From assembly GCA_017654855.1 (NCBI GenBank), contig CM030332.1:2418001-2482000 (forward strand): 64,000 nucleotides of DNA, read 5' to 3'. A model generated the notes under the pieces. That model did no database searches. It was given only the letters and a program-made list of their open reading frames with translations, and was not told where the DNA came from. Both the position numbers and the translations under genes were made by a program. Source of the stretch: Podospora anserina (taxonomy: Eukaryota). Of the stretch, positions 28,446 through 63,690 are shown one piece after another (within the stretch, counting starts at the first letter, position 1; each line of letters starts with the position of its first letter).

Positions 28446-29492
28446 GACGACAACGCCGGGACGGACGCGGCAATTGGACTTGCTGAGCTTGCGGTTTCGG
28501 GCGTATTGTTTAGTGATTTGTCGAGTCTTGAGATCGTGGATAATCAGCATGGACCGGCGGGGCAGGTTCTAACGGCTGCCCATATAGTTAACAGTAGCCA
28601 AGCAACAGTTGCTGTAGAGTTGCCAGTTGCCACCGAAACTGAAGTGCAACGCAAGGTTTCTCTCTTCTCTCAGCGGTATCCTGGGATGCGAGCTCCACTG
28701 TTGCGGATCAGGAGCCCAGCTAAGCGCAGTGGGCTGTTTGGCTCGGGACCTGGAGTGTTTTTGCTTCGTCTCTTTCTCGTGGTGAAGCTATTCAAACTTT
28801 GAAGAGATGAAAACACAAAGAAGCGGAAAAAGCCAGTCCAGAGGCTGGCTCAGCAAGTGGTGCCAGACCAACAGGGGCTTCTGTAACCAGCGGAAGCCAC
28901 GATGGCCCAGGCACAGCAACTTGTGCCATCACCGACACACGTTTCACCAACATTGGTTGCCATTGGCGAATGGCTCGACTTCGCTTTCTCTTGGCGCCCG
29001 ACCGGGATTAGGTGGATCTTAGCTCGTCCTGAGCTTGCATCGGAATGACGTTTTGGTGAAGAACAACGCTAGGTTGGGCCTGGGCCCTTTGCCGTCCTCA
29101 ACGTTCAACAGGTGGCTTTCGTTCTCAAGAATGAAAAAGGATTAAGGGCTATCATTTATCTTGATACCTACTGTGTAAAGTCCTTGAGGTGCCAATCAAC
29201 CTGAACTTTGTAGAACGGCCATATTCCATCAGAATGACCCCCAGTCCTAAGTGCAAGCCCCTGTACCTGTCCCACATGTCGCGATAAAAGATAACGATAA
29301 CGGCCACAGACCCGCAAGAAAAATGTCGATGAGGGGGAGGGGCAACCGCTAAATCGCACAGGCTGTCCTAGGCTTGGATAGTGCCACAAAGTACGAAGTC
29401 GACTTCCAAACCAGAACCTGATCGCAGCAAGAGATTGGTTTCGTTTCCTGACTGAACGACTACCAAGCGACGGCCAGTTCAGCTAGACCATC

Positions 29493-49190: not shown

Positions 49191-52100
49191 GATGTCTCGT
49201 TTTTGGGGGGTTTTCGGTCTGTCGCTGCCGAAGTCTCGGAAAGGAAGGGGGGACGCAAGGGCGGGATCGCGCGGAGTTTACTTATTTGTATATGTCTCTG
49301 GTAAAACCGGTGGCGTATGTGGTAGGTATTAAGTAGCTGTCTTTTGAAGCAAAATCGAGATACTATATGTGCCGTCTTTCGTTCGCGAAAATGGAGAGCA
49401 ACCTGGACAACCTGGAAAGTCTGAGTGCGCTGTTGAAAAATTTCGTGCGTGTTTGGGTCGGAGCTCCCGAATGACGCAGAGAACAGGGAGTTGGTGTGTT
49501 CGAGAAATTCGGGAGAAGGCAAACAGTCAGGGGTTTGTGTGGGAGGAAGGATTATTGGTGGTCAAGTGAACACCCAGAGAAAGCAAATGGGAGAAGAGAG
49601 AGGGGGGGGGGGTGTTTGAGGGGGTTGAGGGGATGATGCCCAGGATATCAACCTCTACTTGTCGTTCGTTTCGCTCCACTGTTGCCGCGAAAACCGAAAA
49701 AGGAATGCAAGCACCTGCACGACGGCGTGTGTGTTGCTGTGAGCCCAAGACTTTCTCCTTTGAGGTGCAGTTGATAGACTGGGTCCCGGGGTTGGTTCTC
49801 TCCACTGTTTCTTCCTGGTGACGGCTTTTCTGGGGCTTCAGGGCGTTTGAAGCAGGTTTTGAGTAAATATCGACCCCGTTTCCCTATTGCAGGCTTATTA
49901 ATAGCTCGAGGTTGACAACAAAATGTGTGAAGGGAGAGCCGCCGATTCGAACGGATTGCCAAGCAGGGAAGCCCACTGTTGGATTTGATTGACTGGGGCT
50001 GCGGTGGGTGGAGTTCTTATGCAAACCGCAGATGGTCAGGAGACTGATATTACTTCGTAGGTATTGCCCGAATTATAGCGGAAGGGAAGAAGGATAGCTG
50101 CGGTGTGGGTGATGGGGATCTGATATTGCGACCTTCTTCAAGTCACCAAGCATGGATGGATGGTACCCGTACGACCTGTCAAGAATTGGGTCGTCTTGTC
50201 TCGTCTTGTTCATCCGAGCTCTGACCTGCTGTCAGTCTGCAGGCCCGGGACGGTGTCTCTCCTTTCGGCCGCACGGGGTCCCCGGTGGACCTAGCTTGGC
50301 TTCAGCTGCTCCCGCCTCCTTCCCATCCCATCATCAACTCTCTGTTGAATCTTATTATTATTGCCTCGCTCGGTCCCAACGATTCTGCAAAAAAAAAGTT
50401 GCAACGCTGTGTTCAGAAACAGATGCCATCAGGGGTCGCACAGCATCAACAAGAGACACGCCGGCACCGCCAACCCGAAACATAGGGCACACTACGTCCC
50501 ACAGCCAACGCCCTGCCCCGCTTGATCATGGATGAGTCTCTCAGAAACTATCAGTCCTCACACGCAGCATCACGCACGAGACACAGCGTATCGCGCGGTT
50601 ACCACGTCCGGCAAAAGGATCACCCAGAGAATGCAGCTTTGGGAGGTCTGTGCGGTTGCAGTTTTCGATTCCTGTCTATTTCTGCACCTCTGCATCTCTG
50701 GGTTAAAGATCGGCTTGGCCCTCCCAACCATCCCCCTTTTCGAGCCACACTGCTGGCCCCTTTACGATAAAAGCTGTCATGACTTTCTTCTTTCCAGCAG
50801 GTCACAAATCCATGATCGGTTGGGTCGCTGCACCGCGCCGTACACGGTATATCAATCGTCTCGCCGCCTCGGGCCGTCGGGGTTCATCCTAGAGGTCAGA
50901 TGTTGCTGGAATATCCCGCTGAAATCTCAGCGGCAGCAGCCAGGAACAAGGTGGTGACGGCACACTCCGCCAAGGAGAATCCCTTCCCGCTCAGGGGCAA
51001 ACACCTCCCAGTGATCCCACCTCCTGCATTAGGCGCTACTGATTCCTTCTGGAAGCCTTCCTCTATGGGCCAGCTTTGGGTTGCATGGCGTCTCCCATTG
51101 AAACAGAGTCTGAGTCAAGGTGCACTTTGGCAAAAAAGACACAACAACGGTTCGAGGTTTTACGAGCATCATGAAGTCGTGGGTGCTGACAATCACCAAA
51201 ACTGCCATCTGATACTCTTTGCAATTCTGGGTTCCGTGATTCAGGGGCATCCCGAGCAAGGCTCTCGGTCTTGCTGCCAAAATTCCCAAGCCCGAGCTGA
51301 TACAACAACAGATTACCGACCCGATATCCCGTGTACATCACGAGGCTTGTCAACCCAAAAAACACGACTGGCATTTTCACTAAACAGGGGACTTGAGCAA
51401 ACTCCTGGTCAGTGCGTTTGATGATTTGCCAGGCATGTCAGGCCAAGGTGCAACCCTCCGGCCGAGGCGACGGATACACCGGGATATTCTCATCAGCAGC
51501 AGCAGTGTACTGTGTCACGCTGGCGGGTGTCTTACTCAGTCACCTTACCTCGCTGATGATTACTATAGAGTTGCCTCACCGCAATTGTGGCCAATCTCTT
51601 AAAAGCCAGATTGGGACATGCTCGTCCCATTGTCATCAAGTCTAGAACTTTGAAAATGTCAGCTTTCGGAGATACTAAAGCTCAAGATAATGGCCCCCAA
51701 AGTCTTCTAGAGTTGGTATTTGCCGTCATAAGCGAGGAAAGCTGTGGTGTCACACTTCGCCTGCCGGCACTCGTTCCTCCGAGTAAAAAGCAATAGACGG
51801 GGAGCAGACAACCAACGTTCATCATGGTGGCATCATGTTTCGTTAGTCAGTTGTTCATGACAAAGTCGGTGAGGATTACTAGTCCTGACAACCTCAAGAA
51901 AGGACTGCTCCTTCGGCGTTCGGGGAATCTCAAAATACATGCTACAGAGTAGAGCCGACGACGACAACTTCAGCTCACCGGAAGGACCCCCGATGTGGCA
52001 TGCAAAGCGCGGCTGCTTCCGTTCAGTCGGTTCCCACCAACCTGGAACGAGTCCTGCAGATGTCGGTACCAGAGTCCAGATCGTCCTGGACCACCTGAAA

Positions 52101-52278: not shown

Positions 52279-52377
52279 TGCAGACAGTGGGGTTCGAACC
52301 CACGCATCTCTCGATAATGGTGATAAAAGTTATATGTAACTTAAAACCATCGCCTTAGACCACTCGGCCATGTCTGC
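52279..52377 (-). tRNA. tRNA-Leu(UAA), intron-containing
   Basis: Reverse complement folds as GCAGACA-TG-GCCGAGTGGTCTAAGGC-G-ATGGT-TT-TAA-G-[about 17-nt intron TTACATATAACTTTTAT]-C-ACCAT-long variable arm-GTGGG-TTCGAAC-CCCAC-TGTCTGC-A. T-runs follow. Confidence 0.93.
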
Positions 52378-56149: not shown

Positions 56150-56465
56150 GTTAGGGGGTGTATGTTGTCTGATAAATGATGGTTTCGTCTATCAAAGGTA
56201 CTCGAATACAAGACGTCTGTTTTTTAACTTTTGCTGGCCCCTAACCAGCAGTACCAGCCCTCGAAAGAGGCGCTATTTACTTCGCCGACAACAAGTAATT
56301 GAAGTCAAGGTTATTACACCAAGTCCCCGGCTGCTCTGACTCTCTTTCCGACGCGGCTTTGAGTTTGTACGCGTTGGCTTCAAGCTAAGCAAGCCACTAG
56401 ATTACCTTGTTCCTGCTTGGGGCTGTGCAGCTGGCTTATAAGGTTCGATTTCAGACTGGGCTTTT

Positions 56466-56531
56466 GGCGAAGTAGTGGACTCAATGAAGCTCGTTGGATG
56501 AACTCACCTTGCCCATGTATGGGCCTTCGCT
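56466..56531 (+). ncRNA. Putative terminal-stem small RNA, unit 1 (66 nt, degenerate)
   Basis: GGCGAAG-TAGT ... hairpin GCCCA/TGGGC (56511-56524) - CTTCGCT, then TCTAATTTT. Confidence 0.45.
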
Positions 56532-56979
56532 TCTAATTTTGTCGATCCTGAGGAGAGGATCTCCGAAGAGAACATTCCATATTTTTTTCCTTCATTCTCA
56601 CTCAACACTGAATTGGCCATGCCTGGATGCAGTGAAAGAGAAGAGAGGGTGTGACCTTTGTAGGCGGGTGGTGCAGTTAGAAGCCTGTAAGTCAAGCTGT
56701 GGAAGGCATATGTTCAATCCTGCGGAATGGGAAAAGAATGTTCTTTTTGCATCTTTTTGAAACAGATATCATCTGTGATATAGGAACTCGAGAAAGAGGC
56801 CCATGCTAATCAAAAAAGCTTGACTGGGGAAATAATAGCCAAACAACTCGGCCTTTGATAGATCAACTTCGAGATGTGACACGTGATTAGTTTTGACAGC
56901 TGTGACCAGGCCCGATGGGGCTACTTTAACTTTTGGCAGGCTAGAGGGTATATAAGATCCTTTTCCGAGAGTTTCTTTC

Positions 56980-57080
56980 AGCGAAGTAGCTGGTATTACA
57001 ACTTCGAGCTCACCACTCGACCCAGCAAACCGGCCCTGGCAACAGAGCCACCCACGCACTTGGATAATTGTGCCTTCGCT
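56980..57080 (+). ncRNA. Putative terminal-stem small RNA, unit 2 (101 nt)
   Basis: AGCGAAG-TAGCTGG ... GCAC/GTGC hairpin (57056-57073) - CTTCGCT-TTT. Upstream GGGTATATAA-N6-TTTCCG-N11. Confidence 0.6.
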
Positions 57081-57441
57081 TTTGCATTTTTCATCACGAC
57101 ATCCCCAAAGGTCTCTCGGACTGCACGGCATGGGTGGGGGCGAGGCAGTTAAGGGGTTGGATAGCTAGTACTTTTCTGTAACTTTGGCGTGAATGGCTGC
57201 GTGGCAGGCAATACCTAAATCGGGAGCAATTTGAACGTTGTGCTTTCGAATCCAGGAGCGGCGGCCTTGCGGATCGCCTCAGCCCGAACCTCGTACAGAC
57301 CTACAGAGCCGATTCTCCAGGGCCCCTTTTTCCATATTTTTGGCATGTGCAGAAGATGGGAGACAGGTGCGAAGGGCTGCTTAAAACTGCCTTACGTCTA
57401 TCTGGCTTGGATAATTGACACATAGTTTCAGGAAAGTTGTC

Positions 57442-57664
57442 AGCGAAGTAAGGTAGCTAATTCACTTGATTATTTGACAATTAACTTTCTTGCCCGGATA
57501 TGGGTCTGCTCTTTTATTTTTGGAGACATATATGACTTCCCTTTTCTTCCAGTTTTGGATTATCCAAACACCGTCAATGCACTCGTTTGTTCGGGAAGAT
57601 GTCTGTCGGTAATATTGGCTGGTAGGTGGTGTAAGCTCCTGCGCATCCGAACTTCACTCTCGCT
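57442..57664 (+). ncRNA. Putative terminal-stem small RNA, unit 3 (long/degenerate, about 223 nt)
   Basis: AGCGAAG-TAAGGTAGC. The best 3' partner is CTCGCTTTT at 57659, preceded by a GTTCGG/CCGAAC stem. Confidence 0.35.
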
Positions 57665-58004
57665 TTTGCTTCCTAGCTTACCTCTAACCCTCTCTTTTTT
57701 TGCCCTCTTGCACAACGTGGAGAGTGGAGACCGGGAACAGCACACCTCACCACAACCATCTTCATGTAAACAAGATGTCCAGTGCATACATCTGTATTTG
57801 AAGCAAACTTTCGAAACGGCTCGAGTTCAAATGTCTCTTTTTGCCTGTTTTCTCTTTTTTCATTGGCTGTGAATCCCAAACCTTTGGAGCACAAGAGCCG
57901 CTAGGGAATCCGTCCTCATTTTCACAGGAGGGACACTTACTGCACCACCACAACAGGCTGCAATTGAGTCGGCTATATCATCTTATTTTCTGTTGAGGCT
58001 AAAC

Positions 58005-58127
58005 AGCGAAGTAGCTGGTATCAAATTGAGTATATCATACTGCAACATATATATCCTCGGATCACCACTGAGGGCTTCGGTTCTCGCCAGACATCTACCT
58101 GTTTGCAAGTAGATGATCTCCTTCGCT
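58005..58127 (+). ncRNA. Putative terminal-stem small RNA, unit 4 (123 nt)
   Basis: AGCGAAG-TAGCTGG ... AGACATCTAC/GTAGATGATCT hairpin (58089-58119) - C-CTTCGCT-TTT. Confidence 0.6.
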
Positions 58128-58340
58128 TTTGCCATGGCAACCGAGCCAAGGGGAGAACTTCGCATCTTTTTGGATGTCAACTCTCATCGTCCTGCGTCTT
58201 TTCCCTTTTTTGTCCTTTGAGGTTGCGTGGGAGGGCTAACATGAGGAGAGAGATGTCCTCAATTTCATACCAAGACCCCACCACCACCACCACCACTTGG
58301 GGACTTTGGGCTATGAACTTTGTTTCCGTCAGAGGCTTTC

Positions 58341-58432
58341 AGCGAAGTAGCGTCCAAATACTATCATTCGAGTTTTCGAACAATCTGTGAGGTCTGGGGG
58401 TTCAAGAATACCTCGAGGTATTCGCCTTCGCT
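58341..58432 (+). ncRNA. Putative terminal-stem small RNA, unit 5 (92 nt)
   Basis: AGCGAAG-TAGC ... GAATACC-TCGA-GGTATTC (58406-58423) - GC-CTTCGCT-TTTATTTT. Confidence 0.6.
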
Positions 58433-58749
58433 TTTATTTTGTCTTGCCCACAAATCCAGAGGCTGGCCACCTCAAGGGCTAGCAGGGGCAGTAATCGATA
58501 CTTAGATCAAAACACTATTTTTGACCTCTTAACGCAAGTGGATGTGTGCATACTTTATTTTGAAACGTCGTGTGTTCGAATCTCTGTCTTCTCAGTTGCA
58601 TTTTTCTTCTTGTCCAGGGTGTGACCAAGTAATCGTTTTTAGTGTTGAAAGATGTCCTCAATCTGTGCCGAGACCAACAGCTATTTACACCACCTACCTA
58701 GGCACACACCAGCACTAGGGATATCATCAGTGTTTCCGACACAATCATC

Positions 58750-58866
58750 AGCGAAGTAGCCTAAACATGCCATCTTATGATGAGTACTTGATTGCAACGG
58801 ATAACCACTGGGCCAGGTCACGGTCACTCTTAGACATCTACTTGTAGATATTCTAGGTCCTTCGCT
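58750..58866 (+). ncRNA. Putative terminal-stem small RNA, unit 6 (117 nt)
   Basis: AGCGAAG-TAGC ... TAGACATCTAC/GTAGATATTCTA hairpin (58831-58855) ... CTTCGCT-TTTT. Confidence 0.6.
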
Positions 58867-59142
58867 TTTTCGCAGTGTGCTCTCATTGTCGCTAGTGGCG
58901 AATGCTCGCAACTTTCCACTGCTTTTTAGCAACATATTTCCAGGCACCCTAACGCAGATGTCTGTATGCAAACTTGAAAATAAGACGTCCTGCGTTCGAG
59001 TCTTTCTTTTGCTTCTGCATTGTCTTTTGTGTGTTTAGGGGGGAAGATGTCCTCACTTTCTGCCAAGACCCCGCCACTTACACCCACTGGAAGAGCTATA
59101 TAGTGACCTAGGGATATCATCTTTGTTTCCGGAAGAGATATC

Positions 59143-59255
59143 AGCGAAGTAGCTGGAATAAACCACCTTTGGATGATCTACCATTATATCTACGGATAAC
59201 ACTGCGGGCCTGGGGGCATTAAAGGGACGTCTACGAGTAGACGTTCTCCTTTGCT
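59143..59255 (+). ncRNA. Putative terminal-stem small RNA, unit 7 (113 nt)
   Basis: AGCGAAG-TAGCTGG ... GGGACGTCTA-CGAG-TAGACGTTCT (59224-59247) - C-CTTTGCT (G-U wobble keeps pairing) - TTTT. Confidence 0.6.
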
Positions 59256-59559
59256 TTTTGCTTTGGGCTGAGATAACTCCCAGCAAGCCGGGATGACTAC
59301 TACTCTTGCCCTCACCCCTGGCTATGTAGGGATTCCGGTTAATTTAGCATACATGTATGCGTCTCGGTGAGAATATAAGACGTCTCTGTTCGAATGTCTG
59401 TTGCTGCGATTGTTTTTTCTTTTTTCCATACTAGAACTGCTTTTGGGGCTAAGAAAAGATGTCCTCAATCCTCGGTCTGGCTAGGTAGCCAAGGCCTGTG
59501 GAGTCTGAGAGCTGGGCAGGTAGGAAGGGATATCATCGACTTTTCCGGGCATGTCTTTC

Positions 59560-59644
59560 AGCGAAGTAGCTGGTATCAAACAAACTTATCAAGAACGTGA
59601 TGACAGTCTGGGTGGCTTAATGCCCCTAGGATGTCACCATCGCT
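59560..59644 (+). ncRNA. Putative terminal-stem small RNA, unit 8 (85 nt)
   Basis: AGCGAAG-TAGCTGG ... hairpin TGACA-GTCTGGG-TGGC/GCC-CCTAGGA-TGTCA (59601-59636) - C-CATCGCT-TTT. Confidence 0.6.
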
Positions 59645-59976
59645 TTTGCTTTTTATGTAGTTACTTTACAGGTAGACAGGATTACGCAAATCAGGGCTTC
59701 CGAGACGGACAGCTTCAAGTCAAACTTATCACAGAGGGTTCTTTTAAGTGGTTTAACCTAGTGGGCTGCGTCTGGATGTAAAGTTAGAGACGTTCTAGTT
59801 CGAGTGTGTCATGTTTCATCGATTTTCTCTTTTCATGATCAAGGTGTGCCTGGGGCGAACAAAAAGATGTCCTCAAGTCCACCTTTGGCTTAGCGGAGAT
59901 AAGGGGCATCAGATGGGTGGAAGTGAAGGGGGAAGAAGAAGAGGGTATATCACCTTGTTTTCTGAACTCAATTATC

Positions 59977-60073
59977 AGCGAAGTTAGCTGAATCCATACA
60001 TACCTTACCTGAAAAAGCGGCCTTGGGGGATTTTGACATCTTTAATGATGTGATTGCAGGTGTCACCTTCGCT
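59977..60073 (+). ncRNA. Putative terminal-stem small RNA, unit 9 (97 nt)
   Basis: AGCGAAG-TTAGCTG ... TGACATCT/AGGTGTCA stem (60034-60065) - C-CTTCGCT-TTCTTTTT. Confidence 0.6.
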
Positions 60074-60414
60074 TTCTTTTTCTTCTTGTCATCAGATGTT
60101 GGAAACAGGACAGGGAGTGGTCCCCCATCTTCCAGCAAGGCCATCTTGTGGACGAAGATTCAATACGAGGGTTGGCGCAAACATATGCATTTCCATCTAT
60201 TTTCAAGACGCCGTGAGTTCGAGTTTGCAATTTTCTTTTTTGATTCGCTATCATCAGATCTGGAGAAGGGTGTATGCGGTGGTGGAAAAAGCCGTCCTCA
60301 ATTCTTGGCTACCTGTAAAATCTTCTCGGACTGGACTAGCCTGGGGCTTTCACATGGAATATCGAGGGCGATAATATCTGCTTGAGATATGCAAATCTTC
60401 CATCATTATCCTCA

Positions 60415-61516
60415 CTACTCATTTTCCTCCTGTCCTCCTCGAATTCTGTGCGCTGCCACCCGCTCTTTGAGACTGCCTTTGAGAGCATCCCACAAACTGA
60501 ACACCAAGGTAACATGGCCTAAAATTAAGCAAACTGCCTGGTCAAGCTCATCAATTTTGTAAGAGCTTTTCGGAAAAGCCATAGATAGCCTGAGAGCCAA
60601 GCTTTGATTGCTCGACATGTACTTGGTTTCGGTCGCTCCGCCCAGAATAATGATGGCCACTTGGATGACGAGAAAGGGAATAGATATGACAGGCCATATA
60701 GCATCAAACCAACCCTTAACTGTGAGGGTTAATTTGGCTCTTGCAAGATCGAGCCGTTTTTGTATTGTGTGTAAGGGAATGCGTTCCTGCGTGGCATTTG
60801 ACGAGGCGTTGAACAAAATGTCGCACTGATGGGACGCAAGTGAAGTAATTTGACTCAAGACTGCCAGCGCAACAGCAACGATTAAAGTCGTCATAATACC
60901 GGTAATGACCGGTGCGTCAAAGTTATGACAGAAGGGCCTCACCATGTTGCTCTCGTCGATTGGTACATTCCATCCGGTTTTGATTACTATGGCCTGTGGG
61001 CAATATTCAGCTCCTGTCTCAAGATTTCTCTCCTTACTCCAACGGAAAGAAAGAAGTTACTACACTTACCCACTCTGGCGACCAAGTAAAAGCAGTCACC
61101 ACCAGCACTATCAACGCCCTTTTCATCTGGCCCTTCCAAGTTGCCAACCCAAAAAGTGCGAGGCCGAAGCCAGAGAATGTCTCGCACACCGTCAATGGCG
61201 CTTCAAGGGCGGATGAAAATTGTTGAGAAGATATGTCGGAGCTTGTCAACAGAGTCTTGAGACTCGAGGTTGATGAAGATGGTGCTTGAAAGAAGATCAA
61301 ATTGTACACATGGCCAGCTGCCACCGCTGGGATGGTGAGTGCTATGATGAAGTCAGGCGAGATGGTGTTGGAGCGGGAGTATTTGGGGTTGAACGTCCAT
61401 GTAACAAAGAGGGAGAGGAGGATGCAGAGCCAGCCGCCCATGTTCCCTGGACCATAGAGGGAAGACACATTGCTGAATCTGTCGAGGGGGTGGTGGCTTT
61501 CACCGGAAACATTCAT
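60415..61516 (-). CDS. Hypothetical multi-pass membrane protein (2 exons), embedded antisense within the array
   Basis: ORFs 61034-61516 and 60415-60945 can be joined by an intron at about 60994-61069 (GTAAGT...GCTGAAT...CAG on the minus strand). Several hydrophobic segments; motifs 'SSLYGPGNMGGW' and 'IDELDQAVCL'. Confidence 0.65.
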
Positions 61517-61994
61517 TGTGCCCGGAAAACAATAAAGACCAAGACTTTTTCGCTTGTTGTCATAGGAGAATGGATTTAGTCAAATGCCTGTCAATGTATG
61601 GAACTCCCACATCCTCGTTAGCCAATAGCCATATCACGATATACAACAGGTAACTTCACCTATTTTCACTGTGCCTCACTCGAGATGATGCTACAGCTTT
61701 GAACCGGGGCAGTGCCTCGAAGAAGGTTGCATCGAGCGGGAAATCGGCGTTGGCCAGACTCTGAAGCCCGACATGCCTTGCGGCTGGCTCCAGGTACCAA
61801 ACATGCATTGGCAGATGGGAAACATGGCCGTGTCTGAGTCTCGTCGTTCGATTATGAGAACTTTGTTTCATGCTTGTTGCAAACCTAGGTAGGAGCCAAG
61901 AGATACACAAGATCTCAAAACTGCAATCAAGTGGTTTGGCACGTGAGTGGCGTTCTCTCTAGCCTTATCAACTACTTTTCCGACCTTCAATGTC

Positions 61995-62054
61995 AGCGAA
62001 GTAGCGAACTACATTCTCAGACGACTTGAAATTGTATCTTCGGATACCTTCGCT
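61995..62054 (+). ncRNA. Putative terminal-stem small RNA, unit 10 (60 nt)
   Basis: AGCGAAG-TAGC ... GTATC-TTCG-GATAC (cUUCGg tetraloop, 62034-62047) directly abutting CTTCGCT-TTTTTTT. Confidence 0.65.
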
Positions 62055-62451
62055 TTTTTTTGCACTTTCCAGACATATCCAAGCTCAATATCAACATGCC
62101 CCCTTCTTTTTGACATCCCTATCGCGCTCTCGTGGACAGAACAAGCCCAAGCAACCGCCATTTCTCTTTTTACTGGGTCGCTGACATGGTTGGACGTGTC
62201 TCACCTCAAACTAGAGACGTCAGAGTTCGAATCAGACATGTCCCCAACTTCATGTCTTTTTCACAATCTCTCTTTTGCAGTCTGCAACTTTCACAAGATG
62301 ATATAAGACTGCAGTTAATGTGGTGTCATTGCTAAAATGCCTTAACCAACTTTATTCTTACCTAAGTGCTCTTTCTCTCTTGTTCACATGTCAGCACGTG
62401 CCGCCAGCCTGTGTCTGGGGTATACAGCCTCCCTTTCCACACCTTACCTCC

Positions 62452-62515
62452 AGCGACGTAGCGGAAAATTAAATAGGAATTTACCCTGTCCCCCTTCGGG
62501 GGAAACACCTTCGCT
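62452..62515 (+). ncRNA. Putative terminal-stem small RNA, unit 11 (64 nt)
   Basis: AGCGACG-TAGC ... TGT-C-CCCC-TTCG-GGGG-AA-ACA (cUUCGg, core 62491-62502) - C-CTTCGCT-TTT. Confidence 0.6.
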
Positions 62516-63690
62516 TTTGTTCACTTTTTTTTAGAAGATCAACAAACAGATCTTCTCACCTCACGATCTTCAACACCTAACTACGCCAGCAAAGCTAGCA
62601 GAGGCCACGCTGGGGCACCTCAACCCCTGGTCTCTGAGGACAGGTGTTGTGGCGCAGACAGCTGGATGCCAGCACAATGAAAATGTTTTTGAGCTTGGAC
62701 GTCGCTGTTCGAATTCAATGACTTGATTATCTTTGCATGCTTTTGTTGAGTCAAGTTCGCTTTTAATGAATGCTTGAATGCACTGGGAGTTGATGTGTAT
62801 TTTCTTGCGAGCGACAGAGGGTTGTTTTCTTCAGCGGTATGTACATATGATTGATCAACTGGCATGTTATTTGTAAGCTGGGTTTGCTTATCACATATTT
62901 GATAATGGAAATCTTTATTTCCCTTGGAGCGGGGGAGATGTTGGGTAGAGCTGTCATACAGGAGATTGTGATGAACTTGTCGTGATGTCGACTGTGGAGT
63001 AATCTGTCAGTGACTGCTGGCTGGGTTATCCCCGGTGTAAGATGCTTAACTCCGGGGCTGGGTCTTGGCAGCTCTGATGGTGCTGGTTTGGAGTTGGCTT
63101 TATTGATCTTGAAGAGTCTGTAAAACCAAAAGGCTTGGTTTATAGAATGTTGTTTTTTTTGGTAACTTTTCGTTTCACCTCGCGAAGGCCATCATATTTA
63201 AGAGCAATATGTGTGTTGTGAATTGATTACAGTAAAAGTCCAGTTGTTCAGGGGTAAGGCAAGCTTTCATTGCTCCATGACATCATCAGCCGTGTTGTTC
63301 CTGAATGGCAGGCTCAACATCAGATTGGTGATCGGAGCATTTGGGAAGACATCCGCATCTTGCACGTGATGACTTTTCAACTTCTAGCGAGAAGAGACTC
63401 TTTCTTCACTGTAATATTTGATCTCTTTTACACACTTATAACACCGGACAAACATCGCTCTTATGCATCTACCAACCAGAAAAAGAACATACCGAGTTCC
63501 CAGCGCAGCCTCTCCTGACCCGCCTCCCTCCTTCTTGCAACCTCCTTCATACCCTCCTTAATGACACAGCAAGGCAGTATCAGCAGTATCAGCAGTATCA
63601 ACTTCTCCGAAGACTTCCAAATTCGATATTCCTGAATGTCTACACCTTACTCTTAATACCTACCCCCTACCTTCACCCCGTCTCTCAACA

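Follow-up and report, generated by a model that had tools for sequence, protein, structure and literature searches.

The yeast gene SNR6, as described in PMC9136082, has three promoter elements: a TATA box at -30, an A box inside the gene and, separated from that by 202 bp, an extragenic B box past the terminator. In that account a positioned nucleosome brings the A and B boxes together, "pseudoA boxes" between terminator and B box may sequester or guide TFIIIC, and the layout is called an unusual organisation (PMC9136082). We analysed a window of 64,000 nucleotides (nt) from Podospora anserina (assembly GCA_017654855.1, contig CM030332.1, positions 2,418,001 to 2,482,000 of the forward strand; coordinates below are those of the window). 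A tandem family of 11 small-RNA units lies on its forward strand from about 56170 to 62745, and the spacers hold cassettes with A-box-like and B-box-like words. The explanation we favour, to which we give about an even chance on the sequence, is that the cassette is an extragenic downstream TFIIIC site of the SNR6 type (a B box with a pseudo-A box) for the unclassified polymerase III small-RNA unit in front of it.

The array follows the SNR6 layout point for point: a TATA-like word stands at -30 to -32, TAGC at +8, and past the terminator come a pseudo-A word and, at +230 to +255, the B core. Beside the 202 bp between the SNR6 boxes, the B core of the array modules lies about 233 bp from +8. 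Unlike SNR6, the unit RNA is not U6 (no Rfam match) and the array has at least 11 diverged tandem copies rather than a single gene. The downstream element is here a complete cassette of tRNA shape that has T runs of its own, and the A-like word at +8 of the units is a poor match to the consensus.

The account in PMC5356446 places the B box of SNR6 in a 3' trailer and the boxes of RPR1 and SNR52 in 5' leaders. Like RPR1 and SNR52 (PMC5356446), the cassettes have their A-like and B-like words outside the mature RNA. The leader in those genes is transcribed and continuous with the RNA, whereas in the array T runs lie between cassette and next unit in all eight cases, and it is to the upstream unit that the cassette is tied. 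According to the same source, the machinery is still bound at ZOD1, which is weakly transcribed, and at the YGR033C locus, both of them ancient tRNA genes; extra-TFIIIC (ETC) sites are bound by TFIIIC only (PMC5356446). The cassettes likewise keep box-like words without a cloverleaf, but the yeast examples are single scattered loci with traced tRNA ancestry, while the cassettes stand repeatedly, and at a constant distance, behind the members of one gene family. The polymerase III-transcribed microRNA-like RNA (milRNA) loci of Neurospora crassa have long microRNA-like arms; the units instead have invariant ends and short hairpins. For TFIIIC binding, PMC11724288 gives nanomolar affinity for the B box and micromolar affinity, mainly via the backbone, for the A box, with 31-93 bp separating the boxes in tRNA genes. 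It also describes base contacts of tauB just upstream of the B box and altered transcription on changes at +44 to +47 (PMC11724288), the region where the cassettes keep a word of the form RRACGYC.

Units, cassettes and the distances between them

The 11 unit starts are the first coordinates of the following lines.

56466 to 56540, forward strand: unit 0, GGCGAAGTAGTG...CCTTCGCT, T4 at about 56537, TTATAAGG at -30
56980 to 57082, forward strand: unit 1, AGCGAAGTAGCT...CCTTCGCTTTT
57442 to 57521, forward strand: unit 2, degenerate, AGCGAAGTAAGG; 3' strand not kept
58005 to 58130, forward strand: unit 3, the sole unit without a downstream cassette
58341 to 58439, forward strand: unit 4, upstream cassette absent, canonical downstream cassette at +233
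58750 to 58869, forward strand: unit 5
59143 to 59258, forward strand: unit 6
59560 to 59647, forward strand: unit 7
59977 to 60084, forward strand: unit 8
61995 to 62060, forward strand: unit 9, 62 nt, T8
62452 to 62518, forward strand: unit 10, the final unit of the array

All coordinates of A-like and B-like words in the original prediction were correct when we located the words again. The B core GTTCGA(A/G)T stands on the forward strand at 58574, 58994, 59388, 59798, 60217, 62225 and 62707, and the predicted variants are TTTCGAATC at 57244, GTTCAAAT at 57825 and GTTCGATT at 61846. To these we add the B-like variant GTTCAATCC at 56712 and a cassette relic at about 56176-56226, at the 5' edge, whose B core is lost.

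56176 to 56248, forward strand: cassette relic; TGAT..TGG, CGTCT and AAGACGTC kept, GTTTTTTA in place of the B core; no upstream unit
56661 to 56748, forward strand: variant cassette; B-like GTTCAATCC at 56712, T5 at 56744; 245 nt past the start of unit 0
57185 to 57253, forward strand: variant cassette; A-like TGGCGTGAATGG at 57185, B-like TTTCGAATCC at 57244; 264 nt past the start of unit 1
57781 to 57860, forward strand: variant cassette; B-like GTTCAAAT at 57825; T5, T4 and T6 at 57838-57860
58530 to 58605, forward strand: canonical cassette; A-like word at 58530, AAACGTC, B core 58574-58581, T5 at 58601
58950 to 59028, forward strand: canonical cassette; A-like word at 58950, AAGACGTC, B core 58994-59001, T4 at 59007 and 59025
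59345 to 59425, forward strand: canonical cassette; A-like word at 59345, AAGACGTC, B core 59388-59395, T6 at 59413 and 59420
59754 to 59833, forward strand: canonical cassette; A-like word at 59754, GAGACGTT, B core 59798-59805, T4 at 59823 and 59830
60173 to 60241, forward strand: canonical cassette; A-like word at 60173, AAGACGCC, B core 60217-60224, T4/T6 at 60231-60241; no unit next, the 3' end of a minus-strand gene beginning at about 60277
61846 to 61853, forward strand: weak variant word GTTCGATT; no A-like word at -43/-44 (2/7)
62182 to 62261, forward strand: canonical cassette; A-like word at 62182, GAGACGTC, B core 62225-62232, T5 at 62257
62650 to 62744, forward strand: last cassette; A-like word at 62650, GGACGTC, B core 62707-62714, T4 at 62741; no unit within the remaining 1.3 kb

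The word at 61846 is probably due to chance; it falls within the 5' exon of the minus-strand gene. In an alignment of the 5' edge relic with four canonical cassettes, the AAGACGT columns are invariant.

In the seven canonical modules the B core lies 233, 244, 245, 238, 240, 230 and 255 nt from the start of the upstream unit (mean 240.7 nt, standard deviation 7.7 nt), even though unit length in these modules varies from 62 to 119 nt. A longer unit goes with a shorter gap between its end and the B core (r = -0.93). A start-to-B spread as small was found in 9 of 5040 permutations of these modules, and in 267 of 200000 shuffles when the two 5' variant modules (245 and 264 nt) were added. The coefficient of variation is 0.04 from unit start to B core and 0.19 from B core to the next unit start (149-268 nt). 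For the canonical copies, the intervals from unit end to B (126-190 nt) and from B to the next unit start (149-227 nt) are as predicted. No unit lies downstream of the cassettes at 60217 and 62707. Unit 61995 has only a weak word without an A-like partner upstream, yet a canonical cassette lies downstream of it at +230. The sole cassette without an upstream unit is the one at about 56176-56226, which has lost its B core and kept AAGACGTC.

The original prediction allowed the cassettes three roles: a promoter-bearing leader as in RPR1 and SNR52, a downstream B box as in SNR6, or a second short transcript ending at the T tracts that follow. The SNR6-type role is clearly the best supported of the three because the distance from the upstream start to B is fixed, two cassettes have no downstream unit, and relatives of the units (below) carry a B box in the 3' trailer. 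The leader role is not supported, since each of the eight intervals from a cassette to the next unit contains at least two runs of at least four T, which should stop polymerase III.

It is nonetheless conceivable, though improbable, that the cassette serves the downstream unit as an upstream TFIIIC-dependent enhancer or as a cut-off leader promoter of the RPR1/SNR52 kind. A canonical cassette lies 149-227 nt upstream of 5 of the 11 units, and the order of cassette, GATGTCCTCA word, TATA-like word and unit is constant in five modules. In addition, RNA-derived contigs of three studies, spanning 57724/57729/57734 to 58018/58135/58147, join the cassette at 57825 to unit 58005, which keeps this explanation alive for the irregular modules. 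These contigs start about 45-55 nt ahead of the A-like word, and strand, transcript ends and polymerase are not readable from them; because of the T runs in all eight intervals we do not take them for polymerase III leader precursors. The service of a downstream unit also sits poorly with the two canonical cassettes that lack one, with unit 58341, which has no upstream cassette, with the far larger variation of the distance from B to the next start, and with the relatives, in which the B word stands beside the upstream unit.

Under the SNR6-type explanation, the tauB part of TFIIIC would anchor on the B core of the cassette. From there, about one nucleosome away, TFIIIC would help TFIIIB to find or keep its position at the TATA-like word and around +8 of the upstream unit. 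The A-like word of the cassette would be the counterpart of the extragenic pseudoA boxes of SNR6, and the T runs past the cassette would stop any transcript started in it ahead of the next unit's promoter.

Sequence conservation in the cassettes

The word GTTCGART occurs eight times on both strands of the whole window, compared with 3.57 +/- 1.63 in shuffles. Seven of the eight are on the forward strand inside 58574-62714 (4.1 kb), where about 0.1 would be expected by arithmetic from the shuffle rate. Elsewhere, GTTCGAAT at 49945 on the reverse strand was set aside as a chance word. The A-like words are found where predicted, at 44, 44, 43, 44, 44 and 43 nt from the B core in six of the seven canonical copies, and the two wider spacings are 59 nt (57185/57244) and 57 nt (62650/62707). 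A start-to-start distance of 43-44 nt leaves about 32 bp between the boxes, inside the 31-93 bp given for tRNA genes (PMC11724288). We scored the words at -43/-44 against the A-box consensus TRGCNNANNGG, which, like the 11-nt B consensus GGTTCGANNCC, was not derived from this organism's own tRNAs. The seven canonical copies score 5, 5, 6, 6, 5, 4 and 4 of 7; at least 5 of 7 is reached at 4.3% of random positions and in five of the seven copies. G is at the third A-box position in three of them. A run of at least four T follows 13-34 nt past 9 of the 10 B words examined, the exception being 57244 (83 nt).

The cassettes are not working tRNAs, as had been predicted. ARAGORN called no tRNA gene in the window. 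The Rfam tRNA model gave no row for a cassette at E values up to 10 in searches of 7 kb, 951 nt and 131 nt, and its only match in the window is a gene at 52279-52377 on the reverse strand. The T stem pairs at 1-2 of 5 positions in all 11 copies (1.9 by chance) compared with 5 of 5 in that real tRNA, and the acceptor stem at 2-6 of 7 in the eight copies tested (2.6 by chance). The cassette at 62182 is the only copy with a D-arm-like ACAT/GTGT pairing, as read by eye. RNAalifold gave -0.86 kcal/mol for eight cassettes, which amounts to no common fold. With no tRNA match, no T-stem pairing above chance and no common fold, whatever is conserved in the cassettes is therefore conserved as DNA. Descent from a tRNA is plausible on the sequence, though the tRNA model gave no match even in the 131-nt search.

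Mean pairwise identity was calculated without gaps for the six cassettes with 43-44 nt spacing, anchored on the B core.

8-nt B core: identity 0.925
-14 to -1 of the B core: identity 0.38, blurred by a 1-nt register shift
-33 to -14 of the B core: identity 0.34 (P = 0.003 against random anchors)
A-like block: identity 0.35 (P = 0.005; random anchors average 0.25)
+16 to +36 of the B core, T-rich: identity 0.41
Cassette flanks: identity 0.27-0.29 (0.25 by chance)

Just ahead of the B core, the word (A/G)(A/G)ACG(T/C/G)C-N3/4 (RRACGYC) is present in 8 of 8 cassettes. The claim that both A and B boxes are kept thus stands strongly for the B core and clearly for its 5' neighbour, and it was overstated for the A-like word, which is weakly conserved. 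Because the B core and RRACGYC are kept while the flanks have decayed to chance identity, we infer selection on a DNA site shaped like a TFIIIC site. That the cassettes are TFIIIC sites under selection, as originally proposed, is a reasonable reading in which the conservation is observed and the binding is deduced from the words.

It is decidedly improbable that the cassette is a neutral relic, a tRNA pseudogene in decay or the first part of a tRNA-derived repeat that was duplicated with the unit and has no function. Common motifs can be inherited within a tandem family, and the lost cloverleaf pairing and the absence of a tRNA model match fit such an origin. It does not fit a core at 0.925 and an RRACGYC word in 8 of 8 in spacers at 0.27-0.29, the compensation between unit length and spacer length, or the presence of a B word behind the unit in unrelated-looking relatives as well.

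ACGT-core words bind bZIP proteins. With (A/G)(A/G)ACG(T/C/G)C in 8 of 8 cassettes and outside the classical B box, a factor other than TFIIIC, such as a bZIP-type protein on the palindrome GACGTC, could be the ligand, the likeness to a B box being incidental. We give this only a very slight chance. The best-kept letters are those of GTTCGA(A/G)T and not of GACGTC, the relatives have a B-like word without GACGTC, and the description of yeast tauB in PMC11724288 has it read bases just upstream of the B box.

The cassettes might instead be self-contained tRNA-relic polymerase III loci or extra-TFIIIC sites with a role in chromatin, such as nucleosome phasing or a boundary between units. TFIIIC would bind the A-like and B words, and a short, unstructured and unstable RNA may run to the next T run. 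The 43-44 nt spacing in 6 of 7 copies is that of a short tRNA gene, T runs follow nearly all B words at 13-34 nt, the modules repeat with a period of about 393-417 bp (between unit starts), and ZOD1, the YGR033C locus and the TFIIIC-only ETC sites are yeast precedents in the account of PMC5356446. We consider this explanation unlikely, though worth keeping in mind. It leaves unexplained both the fixed distance of B from the upstream start, which holds despite varying unit length, and the B word right behind the terminator in the relatives, and the A-like block is weakly conserved.

The unit family and its relatives

The units share an invariant 5' end, AGCGAAGTAGC, and an invariant 3' end, CCTTCGC followed by a T run. 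They are 62-125 nt long with cores that cannot be aligned. In 8 of 10 minimum-energy folds these ends pair in a 7-bp terminal stem, usually with a hairpin beside its 3' strand; the cores are hypervariable. The stem may resemble the 5' stem-loop of yeast U6. TATA-like words lie 30-32 nt upstream of 10 of the 11 unit starts (56436 to 62428, forward strand). They are GATATCATC (three times), TATATCATC, TATATCACC, GTATATAAG, TTATAAGG and weaker forms, mostly with TTT(T)CCG next. The A box of a tRNA gene begins at +8, and TAGC is found at +8 in 8 of the 11 units and at +7, +9 or +13 in the remainder. With a TATA-like word at -30, TAGC at +8 and an oligo-T terminator, the units look like polymerase III genes.

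A further word, G(A/C)(T/C)GTCCTCA, occurs six times on the forward strand (58252, 58651, 59046, 59458, 59866 and 60291; span 58252 to 60300). It lies 52-77 nt past the B core and 89-111 nt ahead of five unit starts; the copy at 60291 has no unit after it. The longer form is G(A/C)(T/C)GTCCTCA(A/C)T, often with CCAAGACC next. Lying outside the cassette, the word is possibly a distal element of the unit promoters. We saw no copy of it among the metagenome relatives, whose TATA words are plain.

The cores of units 58005, 58750 and 59143, and partly those of 58341, 59560 and 59977, have short motifs in common: CGGAT(A/C)ACCACTG(A/G)GGGC-like, CTGGGGG and a 3' hairpin (A/G)GAC(A/G)TCTAC...GTAGA(T/C)G. 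These motifs point to subfamilies among the units. One RNA-derived contig, X3, has an extra T in the T8 run of unit 61995 (at 62053), a length polymorphism or an assembly slip. Outside the array, AGCGAAGT/CTTCGCTTT at 28978-28987 was rejected as a unit as it has no matching partner strand and no promoter words.

No Rfam family matches the units or the cassettes and spacers. The rows obtained (ceN113, STnc350, DAOA-AS1_2, XIST repeat, sR39, CAESAR, mcrA and sR28) were at chance level, far under the gathering scores. Searches of open-access text by topic and by the printed end words yielded no description of the RNA family; supplementary files may contain lists that bear on it. The sole fungal paper that matched the unit end words in print did so with an unrelated primer. 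The RNA family is thus unclassified, and it may be a more interesting object than the cassettes.

To find relatives, we scanned metagenome contigs for the unit end words, which gave 56 pattern matches at 54 loci. Nine of the 54 were judged by eye to belong to the family (L003, L007, L020, L022, L039, L040, L046, L047 and L049). L022 is a near-duplicate of L020 and L047 of L040, leaving 7 non-redundant loci with 10 non-redundant units. The other 45 of 56 matches (45 of 54 loci), mostly GC-rich or AT-rich and bacterial-looking and including several duplicates, were set aside and served only as a negative control; among them L033 has GTAGCT and lacks the fourth T and the TATA word. L020 (units at 1190, 2435 and 2957 in reverse-complement coordinates) and L022 have three units each, 500-1250 nt apart. 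Their cores hold the consensus A box TGGTG(T/C)AGCGG, and two of the units are near-identical paralogues.

A B-like word lies within 60 nt past the T run in 7 of the 10 relative units. It is an exact GTTC(G/A)A in four (unit 3 of L020, units 1 and 2 of L039, and L046) and G(A/G)TCGATTC in three (units 1 and 2 of L020, and L040). The contigs of L007 and L049 end 31 and 46 nt past the unit. By our by-eye reading, L003 has GTTCGATCC about 165 nt past the unit end and about 280 nt from the start; an A-like word precedes it by 56 nt, and to judge from the words this is the layout of the Podospora array. Among the 45 matches set aside, none has a near B word and three have GTTCRA. On contigs with several units the B word adjoins the upstream unit and is 322 to about 1100 nt from the next. 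Inside the RNA, 5 of the 10 relative units have an A box matching at 7 of 7 positions; its place is +8 in L040 and +26 to +34 in L020 and L039. TATA or ATAT(A/T) precedes 7 of the 11 pattern-matched units of the relatives by 20-40 nt.

Several observations weigh against an SNR6-type role of the cassettes. The tight 43-44 nt spacing of A-like and B words is not needed in such a model and suits a self-contained tRNA-type promoter better. In the relatives the B word is mostly 2-13 nt past the T run compared with 126-190 nt here, and the far cassette could be a different, later element. These relatives were also picked by eye, on GTAGCT, the fourth T, mostly a TATA-like word near -30, extra units nearby and a fungal-looking context. 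Unit 58005 is intact without a downstream cassette. The A-like word at +8 of the units reaches only 4-5 of 7 of the A-box consensus in 8 of 11 units. The B words score 6-7 of 9 on the 11-nt consensus, which 30% of random 330-nt stretches equal. G52 is absent from all seven and C61 is present in three of seven, so high affinity is not assured. Finally, the modules are paralogues, and the distance statistics rest on 7-9 non-independent cases.

Taking array and relatives together, a more specific version is possible, which we put forward tentatively and hold to be doubtful. The units would be an undescribed family of filamentous-fungal polymerase III RNAs, with paired ends (AGCGAAGUAGC...CCUUCGC-UUUU), hypervariable cores and SNR6-like split promoters. 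In the Podospora array, a captured tRNA gene in decay would have taken over from the proximal B box of the trailer and would now anchor TFIIIC from a distance of one nucleosome.

Surroundings of the array and its significance

A spliced gene on the minus strand at 60277-61867 splits the array. Its introns at 60993-61068 and 61587-61658 appear as joints in RNA-derived contigs; they are 76 and 72 nt long and have CT..AC ends on the forward strand. The product has hydrophobic stretches and matches no Pfam family above the cut-off. The gene occupies the place expected for a unit after the cassette at 60217 and the GCCGTCCTCA word at 60291. An Alg9-like mannosyltransferase gene lies upstream of the array. 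The real tRNA gene at 52279-52377 on the reverse strand contains an intron and scores 52.2 bits with the Rfam tRNA model, without an ARAGORN call.

The contigs come from four sequencing runs, and we take them to be RNA-derived because they show the splicing of the neighbouring gene, with skips of 76 and 72. Beyond those that join cassette 57825 to unit 58005, contigs from up to three studies cover 57018-57441, 58160-58449 and 62027-62957, at low depth and in irregular modules. The most regular part of the array, 58612-60116, is uncovered in all four runs, which carries no weight either way since short RNAs are lost from such libraries. Several contigs end 5-18 nt past the T run of a unit (58135/58147 and 58447/58449), at most a weak hint. 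Such ends might reflect longer precursors or read-through transcripts.

The layout of SNR6 is usually regarded as the peculiarity of one yeast gene. If the explanation we favour is true, a second, unrelated RNA family has this layout, which would make it a general solution. A single array would then provide many natural variants, complemented by relatives in which the terminator and the B box behind it are 2-13 nt apart instead of 126-190 nt. These would be material for studying how distance and pseudo-A words affect the action of TFIIIC, where extragenic B boxes come from, and what role this fungal small-RNA family has. For annotation, B-box words behind small-RNA genes are not necessarily tRNA pseudogenes. 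If the captured tRNA-gene version is true, the array would be a natural series of at least 11 variants on the origin of an extragenic B box and the reach of TFIIIC, and may show a tRNA-type promoter turning into one with an upstream TATA box and a distal element.

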